Part shown: positions 4,220 through 10,865 of the stretch, in pieces
How the letters are laid out: every line of letters begins with the position of its first letter
Position numbering within the stretch: the stretch's first letter is position 1
Assembly (NCBI GenBank): GCA_041640075.1
Contig: JBEQAY010000031.1
Location: forward strand, 1-10,865
Reading direction: 5' to 3'
From: Candidatus Nanohaloarchaea archaeon
Lineage (GTDB): Archaea; Nanohalarchaeota; Nanosalinia; Nanosalinales; Nanosalinaceae
Length of the DNA stretch: 10,865 nucleotides
Translations under genes and position numbers: made by a program
The notes under the pieces: model-generated
What the model was told of the DNA's origin: nothing
The model's input: only the letters and a program-made list of their open reading frames with translations
The model's database searches: none

Positions 4220-7114
4220 CTATTCCAGGCCGTTGATTTTTCTGTGCATTTCCAGTGCCTCTTTAGTATCAAACGTCTCTCCAGTCTCTTCACATACATA
4301 TTTGCCGTCTTCATCCTGTGTATCACCATCAGGCTCATCTTCACTTTCAGCATCCTCACTCTCTTCATTTGAGCCTTCAGCTCCCGTTTCCTCATCACTT
4401 TCCTCCTTTACATCTGTGTCTCTTTGGGACGAGTCGCTTTCTTCCTCTTTATTCTCTACAGGCGCGGGAGAACCTGTATCCGGTTCATGTTTCTGGCCGC
4501 GAGAATTACTGTAAGGTTGTCTGTATCCAGATCTTCTGTCCCTTCCATCATCTCCATCATTCTTCTTGATGGCAGCAGCAAGGATCATGCTGAAGATCAT
4601 TATAAGGCCTAATGCGATATTAAGAGAGCTCTGGCTTTGAAGGAACGCACCTGTAGGGGCAATCACTTCCTCCTGTACACTTCCAGTCAGTGAAGTCGAG
4701 TTATCAGAAGACTCATTAACATCCTCAGTCTCATTCTCGGTATCTTCAACACGAGAGTCTTCCTCTCTCTGTCCTACAAGGTTCGTAAATACTGAGGTGG
4801 ACGCTCTCTGTTCTTCCCCCTCAGCCATACCTGAAACCTGAATATTGAAACTTGGGGGATCTCCACATGGATACGGACAGAATCCTTCAGGTAAATTGAC
4901 GTCATAAACAATCTCCTGAACCTCGCCTTCACCTAGAGAGGTGGGTACAGCATCCAATTCATAGAATCTCTGCTCGAGACCCTCAAGAGAAACTTCAACC
5001 TCCTCTACAGGAACCTGGCCTGTATTCCGTAAATCGAAGGATACCTGGCTCTCTTCACCAGGTACTATATCCACTCTCTCCGAACTCTCTATCTCCATAC
5101 CTGTCTCGTAGAATACCTCAATACCTGAGTCACTCACAGTTTCAAATGATTTATACGGATCCTTTCTCAGCTCGACACCTAACCTGTAGTCTCCGGGACG
5201 GGAAGGGACTGTACCCGAAACCGTGAAAGAGCCGTCAGAGCCACTTTCAACCGAGTAAATATCTACTACCTCAGAATCATTCAGAAGTTCCACGGTAACA
5301 TTGGCTCCTTCAACAGGATTACCCTGTGAACTGATGACCGTGCCTGAAACTTCTAAATCGCCTCCAGAGACTATGCTCCCTGAGCTCAGGCTTAGAGGAC
5401 TTTCCTCGCCCTCAAGCCCAAGTTGAGCGTTTGTACCTACCAGGTAGGAGTTCATAAGAATATCTTTCTCTTCACCCACATCTTCAGAAATCTGATGTAG
5501 ATCAAGATTGCCTATGTTCACCCGCCAGTTAGCATAATTAATCGAGACATCATTGCCGGAAACCTGCTCCCAGTCACCAAGACATTTCCTACCCAAGAAA
5601 TTCCAGCTACTACACTCGAAAACCTTCAAATCCTCGGGATTTATATTCGCAGGATTAAACGCCATCGATGTCTTAGCACTCCCGATATTATACCCAAACT
5701 TTACAGCCATCATATTAACAGGATTGATACCAGAAACATCAACCGGTGCATTCTCCCAATACTCGAACTTCACAGCCTCACTGCCACCCACAGAAGACTC
5801 CTCACCCAGATCCACACCATCCAAATTAAAAGTCGCATCAGAAGCAGACTGACCTCTATCGAAGAATTTCAGATTCACTGTACTGTATTTATCTCCCTCA
5901 GCGCTTATCTCCTTGGAGTATAAGCCATCACTTCCCGCATCCACAGGAATTGTCCTTTCGTTATTCCTGAGAGTCATGCGAGTCTTCACACCAGACCCTG
6001 TAGAATCTCTTACCTGTCCAGAGAACTGCCTGGTCTTAACAACTCTCACCGAGTCTACAGGAACTGCTCCTATATCCTCTTTTCTGATCTCGAACAAAAA
6101 CCTGTATTTCCCAGTCTCCAAATCCGGTACATTATTTAGGCTCAGAAGATACTCTGCATCACTACTCTCGCCTGTAGATACCCAGTCCTTCTCCTCATAC
6201 ACTTTGTTGCCTTCCAAATCCTGGACAGAAACGACAAAATCTTCCTCAGAAAGATCCTCAGTATAGGATGGGGCACTATCAATATTCAGCTCGTACTGGA
6301 GAGTCCCAAGATTTTCATAACGGATCTTTCTGCCAGGATCACCTCTTATAATCTCAGGTCTCCAAGGATAAACTCTAACAGGAACCTTGAATGACTCAAT
6401 CAAAGCACCTGGACCAGAACCATATTCATACTCTATATCAAGATTTCTTATATTCCTATCACTATTATCCGAAGTAGGTGGAACATATCCCTCAGTTGTC
6501 TCCATCTCAAGAGAATCTGAACTGGAACTATAGGAGATGGAGTTTGTAAGAACATTATCCGGGGAATCAGTGAACTCTAGCCGTTCAGAATCGAATTCCT
6601 GGGTTGCCCCGTAAAGTTCAATGTCAAAGCCTGTAACCGGTTTCGTAAACTCATTTCTTCCCTCCCAACCAACTATCTCTCCGAAGTAACCCATTCCGTA
6701 CTGACCGCTGTACTCCCCTTCGTAAGTCTCAGAAACCTCAGGAACTCTGAGATGGTTTAAATTAACATCCTTCGCTATCGGCTCTCCACCCTCCTTCATC
6801 TTCACATTGAGGAAATAGTCGTAAGAACCTAGATCTCTCTCGTCAAGTTCACTAAGCACTTGGTTAAAATCATTACCTGTGAGATATTCTTTATCAAAAA
6901 CTTCTTCATTGAAGGAAATATTGTTCCCATTACTCACATTAAGCCAGACTTCTTCCACTGACCCATTCATGGAAGTAAAGTTTACCTCTGTCTGTGATCC
7001 AGTCACCCAAACCTCTCCACCATCATTGAACTGCAACTCCGCTGCTGCAGGCGCTGTTAGAAGCGCGGCGCAGGCGAACAAAATGACGTAGAATTTCTTT
7101 GAGATGGATAGCAT
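4220..7114 (-). CDS. Large single-pass cell-surface protein with multiple Ig-like domains, an acidic cytoplasmic tail and a degenerate C2H2-like C-terminus
   Basis: 964 aa. Sec signal peptide (MLSISKKFYVILFACAALLTAPAAA), beta-rich ectodomain, two carboxypeptidase-regulatory-like segments (FSGQVRDSTGSGV; SGTVISSQGNPVEGANVTV), a CARDB/NEW3-like segment (PGEESQVSFDLRNTG), TM helix NIALGLIMIFSMILAAAI followed by KK, then a 115-aa tail. Confidence 0.85.
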   Translation of the reverse strand: MLSISKKFYVILFACAALLTAPAAAELQFNDGGEVWVTGSQTEVNFTSMNGSVEEVWLNVSNGNNISFNEEVFDKEYLTGNDFNQVLSELDERDLGSYDYFLNVKMKEGGEPIAKDVNLNHLRVPEVSETYEGEYSGQYGMGYFGEIVGWEGRNEFTKPVTGFDIELYGATQEFDSERLEFTDSPDNVLTNSISYSSSSDSLEMETTEGYVPPTSDNSDRNIRNLDIEYEYGSGPGALIESFKVPVRVYPWRPEIIRGDPGRKIRYENLGTLQYELNIDSAPSYTEDLSEEDFVVSVQDLEGNKVYEEKDWVSTGESSDAEYLLSLNNVPDLETGKYRFLFEIRKEDIGAVPVDSVRVVKTRQFSGQVRDSTGSGVKTRMTLRNNERTIPVDAGSDGLYSKEISAEGDKYSTVNLKFFDRGQSASDATFNLDGVDLGEESSVGGSEAVKFEYWENAPVDVSGINPVNMMAVKFGYNIGSAKTSMAFNPANINPEDLKVFECSSWNFLGRKCLGDWEQVSGNDVSINYANWRVNIGNLDLHQISEDVGEEKDILMNSYLVGTNAQLGLEGEESPLSLSSGSIVSGGDLEVSGTVISSQGNPVEGANVTVELLNDSEVVDIYSVESGSDGSFTVSGTVPSRPGDYRLGVELRKDPYKSFETVSDSGIEVFYETGMEIESSERVDIVPGEESQVSFDLRNTGQVPVEEVEVSLEGLEQRFYELDAVPTSLGEGEVQEIVYDVNLPEGFCPYPCGDPPSFNIQVSGMAEGEEQRASTSVFTNLVGQREEDSRVEDTENETEDVNESSDNSTSLTGSVQEEVIAPTGAFLQSQSSLNIALGLIMIFSMILAAAIKKNDGDDGRDRRSGYRQPYSNSRGQKHEPDTGSPAPVENKEEESDSSQRDTDVKEESDEETGAEGSNEESEDAESEDEPDGDTQDEDGKYVCEETGETFDTKEALEMHRKINGLE

Positions 7115-7140
7115 CTATGATCTGTTGCGTGCTGAACTGG

Positions 7141-7154
7141 TTTAAAACTTTATT
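7141..7154 (-). promoter_or_regulatory. Putative BRE/TATA box of the 964-aa gene
   Basis: The minus strand reads AATAAAG-TTTTAAA, ending 26 nt upstream of the ATG at 7114. Confidence 0.5.
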
Positions 7155-7929
7155 TTATCCGGGTTCTGAAAAGGAGGGCTACAAGAGCAATGTTTACAAG
7201 CAGTGAAGTGGCTAGCAGCAGGATGTCCAGTTTCTGTCTAATTTCATTGAGTAAAGATGTCTGTGGCTCGAGCTCTACAGTAGTTCTACCTACGACATTT
7301 TCATTTGATTTATTGAGGACAGCAAACTCTATTTCCTCTTCTGAACGAAAAAGGGTGGGCTCATAATCGATATTGGCCTCACTTTCGTTTATGTCAGCCG
7401 ATGAAACTTTCCAGTAAGGAGGTGTATCCAGTGGAACTAGGACACCACGGCTCACAGAGAAAGTTGCCTTAGCTCCGGTATCCGTAGCCTCTGTAGTTCT
7501 GGAGTCAATTGTGCCGTTAACCTGCTCTGACTTAGTATTCTGGAAGGTGAATTCTTCAAGATTCTCCTCCTGTCCACAGTACTGAAGGTGGATTTGAACC
7601 GGTATCTGTCCTGTTGCATTACCTGAGATAAATCTTAACTTCATAGCTGCTGTCTCTCCAGGCCAGAGCTCGTATCCTCTGGAGTAGTGGGTTATATCAG
7701 TGGTGTTTCTTTGTATATCAGCTCTCAACCTGTATGTACAACCTACAGACCCTGTATTGGTTACAGATGAGGATACAACCTGAAGAGTGTCCGTGGTGTT
7801 TCTGTAATTCAGATCAAAAGACGAATGATTCAGCGAGGCATCCACATCTACCTTGTAAAGAAGAGAGGATGCTCCAGATACAAGTAATATACAGGCAATC
7901 AGTAGAAGTACGATTTTACGTTTATCCAT
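7150..7929 (-). CDS. Hypothetical membrane-anchored surface protein with an Ig-like domain
   Basis: 259 aa. Signal peptide (MDKRKIVLLLIACILLVSGASS), VTNTG...LWPGE Ig-like motif, two Cys in the mature part, many N-x-S/T sequons, and a C-terminal TM helix followed by RTRIK. Overlaps the upstream gene by 31 nt, with AGGT 6 nt before the ATG. Confidence 0.85.
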   Translation of the reverse strand: MDKRKIVLLLIACILLVSGASSLLYKVDVDASLNHSSFDLNYRNTTDTLQVVSSSVTNTGSVGCTYRLRADIQRNTTDITHYSRGYELWPGETAAMKLRFISGNATGQIPVQIHLQYCGQEENLEEFTFQNTKSEQVNGTIDSRTTEATDTGAKATFSVSRGVLVPLDTPPYWKVSSADINESEANIDYEPTLFRSEEEIEFAVLNKSNENVVGRTTVELEPQTSLLNEIRQKLDILLLATSLLVNIALVALLFRTRIK

Positions 7930-8378
7930 TTTTTACCTATCAGGTTGTTAGCGGACTGGATTTTTATCTCTACCTCACCGGCATAGTATCCTGGTTCATC
8001 TGCTATAGCCACTATTTCAAATCTCTCTGAACCCTTCATCACGAAAGAGGAATCATAATCCAGGTAGGATGAGATGTTTCCTCTGGTCTCGACATCAACC
8101 AGGCCTGTAGATGTTGATTCAAGTACCAGTCTTTTGGTCGCATTCGAGCCTTCAGGCAGTACTCCAAACTTCAGGGAGTTATCAGCATTCACTCCTAGGT
8201 ACATATCCGTGGAGTTGTTCATGTCTGCCGTCACGTTCAGACTTGCAGGACGTGTGGAGACTGCTGTATCCGTCATTAACATCTCAAGACCTATAGGAAT
8301 AGCTACTGCCAGGGCGACAGCAACAATCAATATCAGTTGTCTGCGACCTATCTTTTCCCTTAACTTCTCAGGTGACAT
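7899..8378 (-). CDS. Hypothetical small protein with an N-terminal TM/signal segment and one Ig-like domain (candidate minor or anchor subunit)
   Basis: 159 aa. Basic N-terminus, then hydrophobic LILIVAVALAVAIPIGL, motifs LKFGVLPEG and EPGYYAGEVEI, and several sequons. Overlaps both neighbours (11 nt and 31 nt). GGAGGT lies 13 nt upstream of the ATG. Confidence 0.82.
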   Translation of the reverse strand: MSPEKLREKIGRRQLILIVAVALAVAIPIGLEMLMTDTAVSTRPASLNVTADMNNSTDMYLGVNADNSLKFGVLPEGSNATKRLVLESTSTGLVDVETRGNISSYLDYDSSFVMKGSERFEIVAIADEPGYYAGEVEIKIQSANNLIGKKWINVKSYFY

Positions 8379-9468
8379 AGTAGATTATTATACCTCCAGC
8401 TGTTAAAAGTCCTGCCAACATCAGGTTTGAGACATCTGAGATCAGTATAAATATTGCTGTCGACAGGAAGGTCAGGAACACCATTATCCACATCGGATCT
8501 ATCTCAAATGAATACATGAGGACGCCGACAAGAACTAGGAACATCACAACCAGCCACAGTGGCAAAGACTGATTCTGTGGTGCCTCACCGTCCTGACTCT
8601 CAGTATTGTTAACCGGTTGAACATTGACATAATCAGTTATGGAAAAACTTTCCGAGGTGAAAGCACTACCTGTCATGTAGTTGACAGAGCCTTTCAAGGT
8701 GTATTCTCCTTCATCCACATCTTCACCATTCCAGAAAGTTGAAATCCACTCTGCCTCGCCCGGCTGAAGCTTGGCGTCCTCGCTGTCAAGGTTCTCCACG
8801 TTTTCACCTACATAGTTCTCTATCAGAAGCCTCGTGGAGTTAGTGCTGGCAGTTACCGTGCCTGTATTCTCCACACGGGTGTCTATCCTGACAACGTTAT
8901 CATCAACCCTGAAAGCGTTCACATCAGTTATCCTGACTTCCCTATCAGCCTCTCCAGGCACCCTAAAAGAGAACTGGGCTCTGGAAAGTGCGTTTACAGA
9001 AGCTCCAAAACCTGTATCCCCACTGGTTATAGGGGAAGCCTTGACAGATCCAACGTGGTAGCCGGGCTCCGCGCCGTCCTCAGGAACCTCTATATACATG
9101 GTAATCCTGCCGTTCGATGAGACCAGGGTTCCTCCGCCGAGAGCTACAGTATTTGATTCGTTAGGTACTACCGCGAACGTATCCTGTGGGAAACTGACCC
9201 ATTCCTCTATACTCTGCTCCGAAACCTCCTCAGAGGGAACACTGGCCCCGGCTCCAAACTTGTCCGCTCCAAGTGCCTGCCTGAAAGACGGACTCACACG
9301 GAAAGGCGTATCAGAGCCTGTTGTAAGATAGATATCCAGCTTCACGGTCTCACCTCTCTCAACAGTCCCAAGATCAGTATACGCCGGAGCAACCCCGACA
9401 GAAACCGCAGCCGAGGACCCGGCAAACATCAGAACCAGGACGTAAAACAGGATTTTTCTGCTCATCAT
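8368..9468 (-). CDS. DUF916/DUF3324-like membrane-anchored surface protein with two Ig-like domains
   Basis: 366 aa. Signal peptide, domain 1 (VGVAP...EEWVSF...IEVPEDGAEPGYHVGSV), domain 2 (VENTGTV...LQPGE...W...GEYTLKGSVNY), a linker and three C-terminal hydrophobic segments. The ORF is solid; the family call rests on recalled motif resemblance only. Confidence 0.75.
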   Translation of the reverse strand: MMSRKILFYVLVLMFAGSSAAVSVGVAPAYTDLGTVERGETVKLDIYLTTGSDTPFRVSPSFRQALGADKFGAGASVPSEEVSEQSIEEWVSFPQDTFAVVPNESNTVALGGGTLVSSNGRITMYIEVPEDGAEPGYHVGSVKASPITSGDTGFGASVNALSRAQFSFRVPGEADREVRITDVNAFRVDDNVVRIDTRVENTGTVTASTNSTRLLIENYVGENVENLDSEDAKLQPGEAEWISTFWNGEDVDEGEYTLKGSVNYMTGSAFTSESFSITDYVNVQPVNNTESQDGEAPQNQSLPLWLVVMFLVLVGVLMYSFEIDPMWIMVFLTFLSTAIFILISDVSNLMLAGLLTAGGIIIYYVT

Positions 9469-9492
9469 CTAGGAACAAAATCAGTTCTCTGG

Positions 9493-9507
9493 ATTTATAC
9501 CTTTATT
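9493..9507 (-). promoter_or_regulatory. Putative BRE/TATA box of the minus-strand operon
   Basis: The minus strand reads AATAAAG-GTATAAAT, with TATAAA at 9499-9494, 25 nt upstream of the ATG at 9468. Confidence 0.6.
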
Positions 9508-9523
9508 CAATACAAGACAGCCA

Positions 9524-9541
9524 AAAAAGGTGAACCTTTTT
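9524..9541. promoter_or_regulatory. Perfect 8-bp inverted repeat, candidate operator
   Basis: AAAAAGGT-GA-ACCTTTTT lies between the two divergent TATA-like boxes. Confidence 0.5.
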
Positions 9542-9544
9542 ATA
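9537..9544 (+). promoter_or_regulatory. Putative TATA box of the 364-aa gene
   Basis: TTTTTATA preceded by GGTGAACC. This would place a start site near 9568 and give a 5' leader of about 50 nt. Confidence 0.5.
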
Positions 9545-9620
9545 CAGGATAAAGCAATCAAGTCGTAGGGGCAAGTAGCATGAGGGGAGATAGAATCAAA
9601 AGTAGAATGGTATACAAAAC

Positions 9621-10715
9621 ATGAAACGAAACAAAGCCAAAAACTCCTCGATACTTACCGCAACAATTCTAACCCTATCTATAATTGCACTTTCAGGAAG
9701 CGCAGCAAGCATCACATCAGATGCGAATGAAACTACTGACGTAAATGTAACTATAACCAGTGAGGTAGCTATCGACGTCGAACCAAATGTACTGCAGTAT
9801 TCTAGTATAGATGTAGGTACACAACAAACAGTAACAGACAGGAATTTCGGAGGAGTCACTATTGAGAACACAGGGTCAGAATACATCGACAAGGTTTGGG
9901 TAAACGCTTCCGTACCACAAAGCAGACCTTTCGGTACGGGACGACCAACTAATTATGATGCAGGAAACTTTCTACAGATTAGACCAAGGATGAATACAAC
10001 CGGAGTAGCAGGTTCCTCTGTAGGAGAATACCACTTCGTTAACAGAAGAGAGTTCGGAATGCCGGAAGGATCTGTACCGACTTACATTGTCGCACCAGCG
10101 AGCGAGGTCAGCTTTGACAGCGGAGCTACTGTTTCGTCAACAGGCGGTGATGTCGTCGTCGGAAGATTCAGAAGAGGCCAAGAACACATTTGGTTCATCA
10201 TTGCATCACCTGACGGATCAACCTGCGATAATTCAGGAAATCCAACACCAGGACCTATGATCAGGGTTGGAGACACATCTTCAACACCTAACAGGTTGGG
10301 AACTGTAGACTTCACGGATGACAACTCAGGAGAATGGACAGAGTACCAGATAGCTGAGAACTCTGCCTCAACCACATACGGTATCGCAAACTCAGCAGTT
10401 ACACTTCAGTGGAGTAACCCGAACGAGGACCCAAGATACGACGTATTGACCACATGCGACACCACTGATGAAAATTCAAATGTTGTCCGTACGAGATATG
10501 CAATAGACTATGATGGGACAACTGATCTGGTTACAAACGGGTACCAGTCAGAGTATGTGATAGACGCTGGAGTTACAGCAGGAAACATGCTCCTCCCTGG
10601 AGGCACAGTACCTCTCCAGACAGCAATCGAAGTTCCAACGGGAGTTGCAGAGGGACAGGTAGAGCTTGGAACTCTTAACCTCGTGGCGACAGCTAACACC
10701 ACGGCACAGACCTAA
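9621..10715 (+). CDS. Secreted Thr/Ser/Gly-rich beta-sandwich protein, candidate major filament (pilin-like) subunit
   Basis: 364 aa. Signal peptide (MKRNKAKNSSILTATILTLSIIALSGSAA), no C-terminal anchor, an alternating N-terminal strand TTDVNVTITSEVAIDVEP, IENTGSEYIDKVWV, and C-terminal LLPGG...IEVP...GTLNLVATA. The ORF is solid; the function is inferred. Confidence 0.75.
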   Translation: MKRNKAKNSSILTATILTLSIIALSGSAASITSDANETTDVNVTITSEVAIDVEPNVLQYSSIDVGTQQTVTDRNFGGVTIENTGSEYIDKVWVNASVPQSRPFGTGRPTNYDAGNFLQIRPRMNTTGVAGSSVGEYHFVNRREFGMPEGSVPTYIVAPASEVSFDSGATVSSTGGDVVVGRFRRGQEHIWFIIASPDGSTCDNSGNPTPGPMIRVGDTSSTPNRLGTVDFTDDNSGEWTEYQIAENSASTTYGIANSAVTLQWSNPNEDPRYDVLTTCDTTDENSNVVRTRYAIDYDGTTDLVTNGYQSEYVIDAGVTAGNMLLPGGTVPLQTAIEVPTGVAEGQVELGTLNLVATANTTAQT

Positions 10716-10717
10716 AA

Positions 10718-10780
10718 CCTCTCTTCTTTTCTCAATTTCTACATTTTTCATTTTCCTTTCTGCACTCATTTTTTATTCCT
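10718..10780 (+). terminator. Long pyrimidine/T-tract terminator region
   Basis: About 60 nt of C/T-rich sequence with several T4-T6 runs directly after the stop of the 364-aa gene. Confidence 0.65.
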
Positions 10781-10799
10781 GTAAAGCGAAGGTGAAGTT

Positions 10800-10865
10800 A
10801 TGTCCAACAAGTTTGATGATCTTTCTGATGAGGAGTTGTCCGAACAGGCAGAGGATTTTGCTGAC
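10800..10865 (+). CDS. Start of an acidic hypothetical protein (3' end outside the window)
   Basis: GGTGA Shine-Dalgarno-like sequence at 10791-10795, ATG at 10800, and an open frame to the window edge: MSNKFDDLSDEELSEQAEDFAD. Confidence 0.65.
   Translation, partial: MSNKFDDLSDEELSEQAEDFAD

Follow-up and report, generated by a model that had tools for sequence, protein, structure and literature searches.

A gene cluster of nanohaloarchaea and two further DPANN phyla that probably encodes a chaperone-primed donor-strand-exchange pilus

A gene cluster predicted to encode a surface pilus is located on contig JBEQAY010000031.1 of a Candidatus Nanohaloarchaea archaeon, a tiny halophile that depends on a host; its source genome (G000) is 980 kb in size and 89% complete. 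This contig of 10,865 nt was analysed over its whole length and is referred to here as the window. It harbors five adjacent genes, four of which lie on the minus strand and are separated from a single divergent gene by 152 bp, with overlaps between the reading frames for the 259- and 159-amino acid (aa) proteins (31 nt) and for the 159- and 366-aa proteins (11 nt). This arrangement, as described in an initial annotation of the contig, is found at the following coordinates, where the five genes are derived from the open reading frame (ORF) list and protein families are labelled F0, F1 and so forth.

4220-7114, minus strand: 964-aa protein (F9)
7150-7929, minus strand: 259-aa protein (F1)
7899-8378, minus strand: 159-aa protein (F5)
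8368-9468, minus strand: 366-aa protein (F2), the predicted chaperone
9469-9620, between the strands: divergent promoter region of 152 bp, read from the sequence
about 9494-9499, minus strand, and about 9536-9543, plus strand: candidate TATA-like boxes within the divergent region, identified by eye
9621-10715, plus strand: 364-aa protein (F0), the predicted major pilin
9735-9755, plus strand: predicted donor strand T-D-V-N-V-T-I, residues 39-45 of the 364-aa protein
10716-10799, plus strand: T/C-rich tract between the 364-aa gene and the MoxR gene, read from the sequence
10800-10865, plus strand: start (22 codons) of the gene for a MoxR AAA+ ATPase (F6), which continues on contig C18

A hydropathy scan identified an N-terminal hydrophobic segment in all five proteins and a C-terminal helix in the 964- and 259-aa proteins, while two to three C-terminal helices are found in the 366-aa protein. 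The 364-aa protein lacks an anchor, and a C-terminal transmembrane (TM) helix was observed in 2/418 of its homologues. This agrees with the four tethered proteins and one anchor-less protein of the initial annotation, the 159-aa protein having an N-terminal anchor or signal only. Named homologues come from Ca. Nanosalina, Nanohalobium and Nanohaloarchaea.

The 364-aa protein carries a Sec-type signal, as identified by inspection, and its AlphaFold 2 (AF2) model (150 alignment rows; pLDDT 95.1) comprises an immunoglobulin (Ig)/PapD-like core, to which both the N- and the C-terminal regions contribute and which is split by an inserted beta domain of ~190 residues with one conserved Cys pair. In the monomer, DSSP assigns no strand to residues 29-50, even though residues 39-48 are modelled with confidence (pLDDT 94). 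Among 418 homologues (effective number 321), V or I is found at positions 41, 43 and 45 in 89, 92 and 97% of sequences, respectively. Based on the model, this V-x-V-x-I N-terminus is predicted to represent a donor strand which completes a neighbouring subunit. Covariation was ranked for 31,009 residue pairs across the 418 homologues, and the ranking was repeated after re-alignment and in two random halves of the set. The first-ranked pair, I51-A356, corresponds to an expected intramolecular pairing. The V43-I336 coupling ranks 14th (18th after re-alignment; 9th and 52nd in the random halves) and E48-D64 ranks 12th (13th; 15th and 28th). As strand 49-54 pairs with residues 354-358, the strand topology places residues 64 and 336-347 at the opposite end of the domain, and both couplings are therefore best read as head-to-tail contacts.

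Comparison of the 364-aa protein against Pfam, NCBIfam and the PDB sequences revealed no match, and 26 distant homologues likewise have no Pfam hit. The weak structural matches that cover the N-terminal strand are donor-strand polymers, namely cannulae, Hyper2 and FimA-FimI (Z 3.5-4.6); in the same Z range, the core alone resembles the fibres of TasA and TLP-1b. The TasA fibre and cannula chains (Z 3.7-4.0) are at background level, and the Fim/Pap pilins are listed amid many unrelated Ig domains. The nearest named Atlas cluster is WxL, at only 0.79, and W-x-L is present within the last 25 residues of none of the 418 homologues.

The predicted partner of this protein is encoded across the divergent promoter region. 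The AF2 model of the 366-aa protein (39-row alignment; pLDDT 86.5) consists of two Ig-like domains, a flexible linker and three C-terminal helices. In a Foldseek search, which the initial annotation had proposed as a check, the WxLIP (DUF916-DUF3324) protein of Enterococcus faecium (9i25; E 1.5e-10) ranked first and 9i1y third to fourth, with the chaperones CfaA, CupB2, FimC and CsuC lower in the list. The VIA comparison returned 9i1y with a Z-score of 13.0 over 226 aligned residues (root-mean-square deviation, rmsd, 7.9); this top score is shared with single-domain glycosidase Ig matches, and 9i1y is the sole two-domain match in the top 25. Language-model features (Atlas) also retrieve WxLIP clusters. 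The window protein has no hit to Pfam PF06030 or PF11797, and weak, sub-threshold WxLIP Pfam hits occur in 3 and 2 of 39 homologues (best E ~1e-4). The membrane-anchored DUF916-DUF3324 protein ElrE has been reported, on experimental evidence, to prime and polymerise the WxL pilin by donor-strand exchange (10.64898/2026.10.17.759780). The modelled fold suggests that the 366-aa protein is likewise a membrane-tethered pilus chaperone, of WxLIP/PapD architecture; the initial annotation had proposed a tethered chaperone or assembly factor.

The 366-aa protein also shows weak hits to ArlF and FlgD (E 0.02 and 0.08), as might be expected if these genes supplied accessory components to a type IV pilus or archaellum with its motor encoded elsewhere. 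The MinD/FleN-like ATPase linked to the cluster would fit such a role, as would the VWA/MoxR pairs that are reported to accompany some archaeal type IV pilus loci (PMC4858521). However, a loose class III signal pattern occurs in only 9 of the 403 F0 homologues that start with Met. PilB, CpaF and TadC are absent among the neighbour families identified, in which MoxR, DUF58, VWA and MinD are the conserved members, and the DPANN type IV loci reported by Hamm et al. (2024) are different loci (PMC11291902). We thus regard this explanation as extremely improbable, and a type IV pilin ranks low as an identity for the 364-aa protein. A Tat-like motif is found in 0/403 homologues and an S26 signal peptidase has no hit in the representatives of the conserved cluster families scanned, and a Tat-fimbria (Tafi) subunit likewise ranks low. 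The lack of class III and Tat signals argues that the system is neither a type IV pilus nor a Tafi.

Profile searches identified the 364-aa family in 33/70 genomes of its own phylum (34 matched, one spuriously), 33/42 genomes of a second phylum and 103/301 sampled genomes of a third, with a few of the latter matches weak; weak matches in G046, G048 and G045 were dropped as non-homologous. The homologues carry the source labels Aenigmatarchaeota, Altiarchaeota and Nanohaloarchaeota, and the best Atlas cluster is 99% archaeal, mostly Aenigmatarchaeota. Gene linkage was counted in F0-centred loci (27, 20 and 22 in the respective phyla) picked for strong hits or for long contigs, many of these loci being cut at contig ends; L048, L049 and the overlapping L056 are omitted. 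The predicted chaperone is encoded in 22/27, 7/20 and 17/22 of these loci, the 259-aa family in 22/27, 8/20 and 16/22, the 159-aa family in 20/27, 8/20 and 17/22, and the 964-aa family in 18/27, 10/20 and 17/22. The genes thus stay together across three phyla, the outcome of a conservation check that the initial annotation had called for. The pilin and chaperone genes are directly adjacent in 21/27 fetched nanohaloarchaeal loci, with a spacer of 149-508 bp across divergent loci, and the arrangement of the five genes is therefore not due to chance. Genome-wide, 32 of the 70 genomes of the phylum carry both genes and 35 neither, while three carry one alone, all at contig ends. Matches to F0, F2 and the BatA-like F3 could not be found in four of the eight single-contig genomes (G001, G010, G014 and G034), and this joint absence indicates that the cluster is dispensable. 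As related genomes do not count independently and linked genes disappear as a unit, such counts reflect linkage, not function. The pilin gene is present in one to four tandem copies per locus, and tandem duplication is typical of pilins. Assemblies break at or beside this gene in seven cases (the window end at 10865; L153-L158), which could reflect strain-level variability of the gene.

Clustering of the ORFs of 29 fetched loci and the window shows that the cluster extends well beyond the five genes initially proposed as the system. It comprises ~14 genes, of which the window holds about half, in the recurring order phosphoenolpyruvate (PEP) synthase, F13, a MinD-like protein (F11), F9, F1, F5 and F2, followed by the divergent F0, F6, F7, F3, F4 and F15 and the convergent F8, F10, F12 and F16. 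Family F6 is MoxR (Pfam AAA_3; E 1e-56), F7 is DUF58 and F3 combines BatA and VWA, as determined by a scan of an orthologue. The MoxR gene is split by the contig break, with its remainder at the end of contig C18 of G000. When the two parts are joined, zero residues are missing relative to 20/20 MoxR homologues passing the score filter. The absence of an assembly ATPase, as initially noted, thus stands for the complete ORFs of the window, but only because the contig ends inside an AAA+ ATPase gene. The continuation on C18 runs from 21405 to 12307 and carries members of F3, F4, F7, F8, F10, F12 and F16 after MoxR, among them the DUF58, BatA-VWA and an acidic protein. The MinD-like gene of G000 is found on a separate contig (C11, 25703-26503), while F13 and F15 were not found in this ~89% complete genome. 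Linkage of the cluster to a MinD-like ATPase, sometimes in two copies (e.g. L022:2393-3175), is seen in 16/27, 6/20 and 16/22 loci of the three phyla, and this ATPase might position the fibre. F15 (L022:14776-15297) is linked to the MoxR-bearing subtype; this small membrane protein has no Pfam hit, but it carries a conserved HExxH-like motif and may resemble an M50-type protease. Upstream of the five genes, those for threonyl-tRNA synthetase, a major facilitator superfamily transporter and an M29 aminopeptidase are ordinary genes, absent from the shared neighbour families and not part of the system; a hairpin and T-tract follow the threonyl-tRNA synthetase gene at 1769-1805.

Two of the families encoded on C18 are homologous to the pilin and the predicted chaperone, respectively. 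The last ~130 residues of F12 are homologous to the pilin core, including the donor-like strand (HH profile comparison: 96.5%; E 7e-10), and follow a variable body of 400-2,500 aa, with lengths reaching 2,557 aa at some loci. From its layout, F12 is likely the tip or adhesin subunit, whereas the initial annotation had proposed the 964-aa protein as a base or adhesin. F10 is a one-domain paralogue of the 366-aa protein, homologous to the chaperone N-domain (HH 97%), with a C-terminal TM helix in most members. The 259-aa protein has a signal peptide, a V-x-V start, one or more Ig-like domains and a TM helix at residues 232-256, and shows a weak PapD-like Pfam hit (E 0.039). The 159-aa protein combines its N-terminal hydrophobic anchor with one small beta domain bearing pilin-like motifs and has no Pfam hit. 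A profile link of these two proteins to the pilin core was rejected as not significant (HH 8.9% and 7%, respectively), and their higher full-length HH scores may stem from the signal peptides. The 964-aa protein contains a signal peptide, Ig/prealbumin-like repeats with a Pfam CarboxypepD_reg match above the cut-off, a TM helix at residues 827-852 and a cytoplasmic tail that is acidic and has at its end a C2H2-zinc-finger-like motif, degenerate here (window 4223-4300, minus strand); the C..C...H pattern is intact in the tails of 15/44 homologues. The family consensus C-termini are plain TM helices with basic tails and no LPxTG motif. By analogy with ElrB and PamR, which lends weak support to these assignments, the 259-aa protein is a candidate membrane anchor or terminator, the 159-aa protein a candidate membrane-tethered minor subunit and the 964-aa protein likely a base or scaffold.

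The Bat-type module of Bacteroides comprises MoxR-DUF58-BatA, and these genes are likewise found in the cluster described here, where they form an optional module that goes together with F8. Genes of the MoxR module are present in 24/25 F8-bearing loci and in 0/18 loci with an alternative protein, G15, as counted in the fetched loci rather than in whole genomes. This indicates two subtypes and shows that a nearby MoxR is not required for the pilus core; in the other two phyla the pilin, chaperone and anchor genes mostly occur without MoxR-module genes in the vicinity. N-glycosylation sequons are abundant in the VWA protein (F3) and in F0, in contrast to MoxR and DUF58, and the VWA domain of the BatA-like protein thus probably faces outside, as judged from these sequons. 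A second MoxR-DUF58-VWA cluster is found on contig C14 of G000 (4224-17013), as well as in L164, L165, L167 and L168. Alongside a homologue of F8 it encodes an F4-like protein and a different anchor-less secreted family of 215-235 aa, which occurs in as many as three tandem copies and has no detectable profile relation to the pilin core; the cluster represents a possible second fibre or coat system. A third MoxR-DUF58 pair is located beside membrane proteins on contig C15 of G000 (4483-7113).

For other archaea, a secretion system that combines MoxR and VWA with Ig-like membrane proteins has been predicted from the arCOG01314 neighbourhood (Makarova et al. 2015; PMC5898192). The present cluster shares these components, while a pilin/chaperone pair has been described neither for that system nor for the Bat-type module. 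The locus could accordingly encode a MoxR/VWA-driven membrane secretion or assembly complex, with the 364-aa protein an abundant, non-polymerising adhesin or lectin. The pilin gene directly adjoins MoxR in 18/27 nanohaloarchaeal loci, as this would anticipate, and the C14 cluster shows that the MoxR-DUF58-VWA-F8 module can pair with other cargo. Nevertheless, most loci of the other phyla and all 18 of the G15 type have the core genes without a nearby MoxR module, and a secretion complex leaves both the conserved free hydrophobic strand and the WxLIP-shaped partner unexplained. No flavodoxin-like (GldG-like) extracellular domain was detected by Pfam in the families scanned, where the scan contained no arCOG01314 profile. 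This alternative is considered distinctly unlikely, and the module is an optional partner of the pilus core, not a required one.

Transcript data are available for a cultivated relative, Ca. Nanohalococcus occultus, in which Table S1 of PMC10266531 lists the gene order vWA, DUF58, MoxR, SVXNc_0246, three hypothetical genes, a MinD/FleN ATPase, three further hypothetical genes and PEP synthase. SVXNc_0246 corresponds to the pilin gene by position, since F0 directly adjoins MoxR in the majority of nanohaloarchaeal loci. In the same table its level is 55,024 reads per kilobase per million (RPKM), as compared with 662, 886 and 448 for the three genes that follow, 1,382 for MoxR and 41,878 for EF-1alpha, and is thus ~80-fold above that of its neighbours. 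The main-text passages of that study consulted here contain no discussion of the locus. This high transcription, together with the donor-strand-like N-terminus, supports the 364-aa protein as the abundant subunit, as proposed in the initial annotation. The strong terminator initially assigned to its gene could not be substantiated: a hairpin was searched for downstream of 10715 and not found, with only the T/C-rich tract at 10716-10799 present. The latter is, on its base composition, likely an archaeal intrinsic terminator, and the transcript level falls ~40-fold between the positional equivalents of its flanks, SVXNc_0246 and MoxR.

Very high transcription at the pilin position would also be expected of an S-layer or coat protein, forming a two-dimensional lattice on anchored stalks of the 964-, 259- and 366-aa proteins. 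The many N-glycosylation sequons in F0, a weak match of one 964-aa homologue to a putative S-layer model, which at E 0.0011 falls well short of the cut-off, and the S-layer-like surface reported for nanohaloarchaea (10.1101/794461) are compatible with such a role. Table S1 of PMC10266531, however, lists another hypothetical gene, SVXNc_0101, at 376,629, seven-fold above SVXNc_0246. No S-layer family or fold was matched in Pfam, NCBIfam or VIA, the 364-aa protein is anchor-less, and its family was not found in half of the single-contig genomes of the phylum. A lattice is therefore judged very unlikely, and S-layer glycoprotein ranks low as an identity for the 364-aa protein, for which a C-terminal TM helix is found in only 2/418 homologues.

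Taken together, we consider it likely that the cluster encodes a chaperone-primed donor-strand-exchange pilus, which works like the WxL/Elr pili of Bacillota and the Pam pili of the Candidate Phyla Radiation (CPR) and belongs to neither. As in the WxL/Elr system of E. faecalis and other Bacillota (pilin ElrD, chaperone ElrE; PDB 9i25 and 9i1y), the modelled chaperone has a two-domain DUF916-DUF3324-type fold and a C-terminal membrane anchor, and the tip adhesin with a C-terminal pilin domain is matched by F12. The donor consensus is S/T-x-G/A-x-V/I-x-F in WxL/Elr, whereas it is V-x-V-x-V/I here; the WxL domain (PF13731) of the former pilin is absent and the pilin domain is split by a large insert, TM anchors take the place of LPxTG/sortase anchoring, the host is archaeal, and MoxR-DUF58-VWA and MinD are linked. 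The WxL pilus is reported to be confined to Bacillota, as based on a RefSeq genus-level screen with family thresholds (10.64898/2026.10.17.759780). The Pam pili (PamA/B, PamC/D, PamR) are described as structures of small host-dependent cells, assembled by donor-strand exchange from Sec-secreted, very abundant two-domain pilins, and are reported to be exclusive to the CPR (PMC13278184). In that description the Pam operon encodes two TM-anchored chaperone-like proteins, paralleled here by F2 and F10, and a TM-anchored terminator candidate, paralleled by the 259-aa protein. The reported Pam pilin order is N-terminal domain, linker strand and C-terminal domain, in contrast to the N-terminal donor and inserted domain of F0, and only F12 has a Pam-like order. 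The fold-match lists contain no Pam entry, and the separation from PamA/B is drawn from their published description. In the Tafi, AbpA bundling pili, threads, cannulae and bacterial TasA, which are fibres of archaea or monoderms, an N-terminal strand joins Ig-like subunits, as predicted here. Tafi and cannulae are described as chaperone-independent, with a dedicated signal peptidase and Tat signals at Tafi loci (PMC11821415, PMC12337348), unlike the present system with its WxLIP-like chaperone and no Tat motif. No published description of this locus was found in a search that did not extend to closed journals and preprint supplements.

Several points weigh against this interpretation. The fibre is predicted from genes and monomer models, and SVXNc_0246 was equated with F0 through gene order, not sequence. 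The covariation signal is modest: in a register (stripe) test, z was only 2-3 and an unrelated stripe ranked first, the far-end distance argument is one of strand topology, not coordinates, and the enrichment of couplings in a groove defined partly after looking (8/20; p 3.5e-5) fell upon resampling to 6/20, 5/20 and 4/20 (p 0.003, 0.016 and 0.07). The fold matches of the 364-aa model are all weak and within background (VIA Z <5.3, top 5.2), and Foldseek returned nothing at E<=0.001, an outcome which shows neither a new nor a different fold. For the chaperone, tandem Ig domains yield many generic matches and the WxLIP superposition has an rmsd of 7.9-8.8 Å. Finally, in the second phylum 13/20 loci, of which many are on short contigs, have no chaperone gene within the fetched stretch, and four genomes that are 68-96% complete (G019, G061, G063 and G066) keep the MoxR half with no chaperone match.

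If the cluster does encode such a pilus, the signal peptides suggest that its subunits would be exported through Sec. By analogy with Elr and Pam, the 366-aa protein, and perhaps also F10, would hold each subunit by filling the open groove of its Ig-like core, until the N-terminal V-x-V-x-I strand of an incoming subunit displaced the chaperone. The fibre would thus grow at the membrane without an usher or a PilB-type motor, and the covariation supports the head-to-tail contact that this would entail. F12 would serve as the tip or adhesin subunit and the 259-, 159- and 964-aa proteins, on weaker support, as anchor or base, while the ~190-residue insert of the 364-aa protein would face outward. 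The fibre would likely be used to attach to surfaces or to the cells of the host. In nanohaloarchaea, cytoplasmic MoxR and DUF58 may further act through the membrane-spanning BatA-like protein on the pilus base, powering, releasing or remodelling a host-attachment fibre placed on the cell by the MinD-like ATPase, although we consider this unlikely.

Type IV pili, lectin-like giant proteins and SPEARE-type proteins are so far the candidates for the means by which DPANN archaea locate and retain a host, a question that is still open. To these the cluster adds a specific candidate fibre, which is transcribed at a very high level and occurs in between a third and three quarters of the genomes sampled from three DPANN phyla, and as the cultivated Ca. 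Nanohalococcus occultus appears to carry it, the prediction is testable now. If correct, it would extend chaperone-primed donor-strand exchange, reported only in Bacillota (WxL) or CPR (Pam), to the archaea, in which Tafi and cannulae form by strand donation and are described as doing so without a chaperone. A MoxR-driven pilus, considered unlikely above, would be the first ATP-powered donor-strand-exchange pilus. The MoxR-DUF58-BatA module, which is poorly understood, would also gain one possible client.

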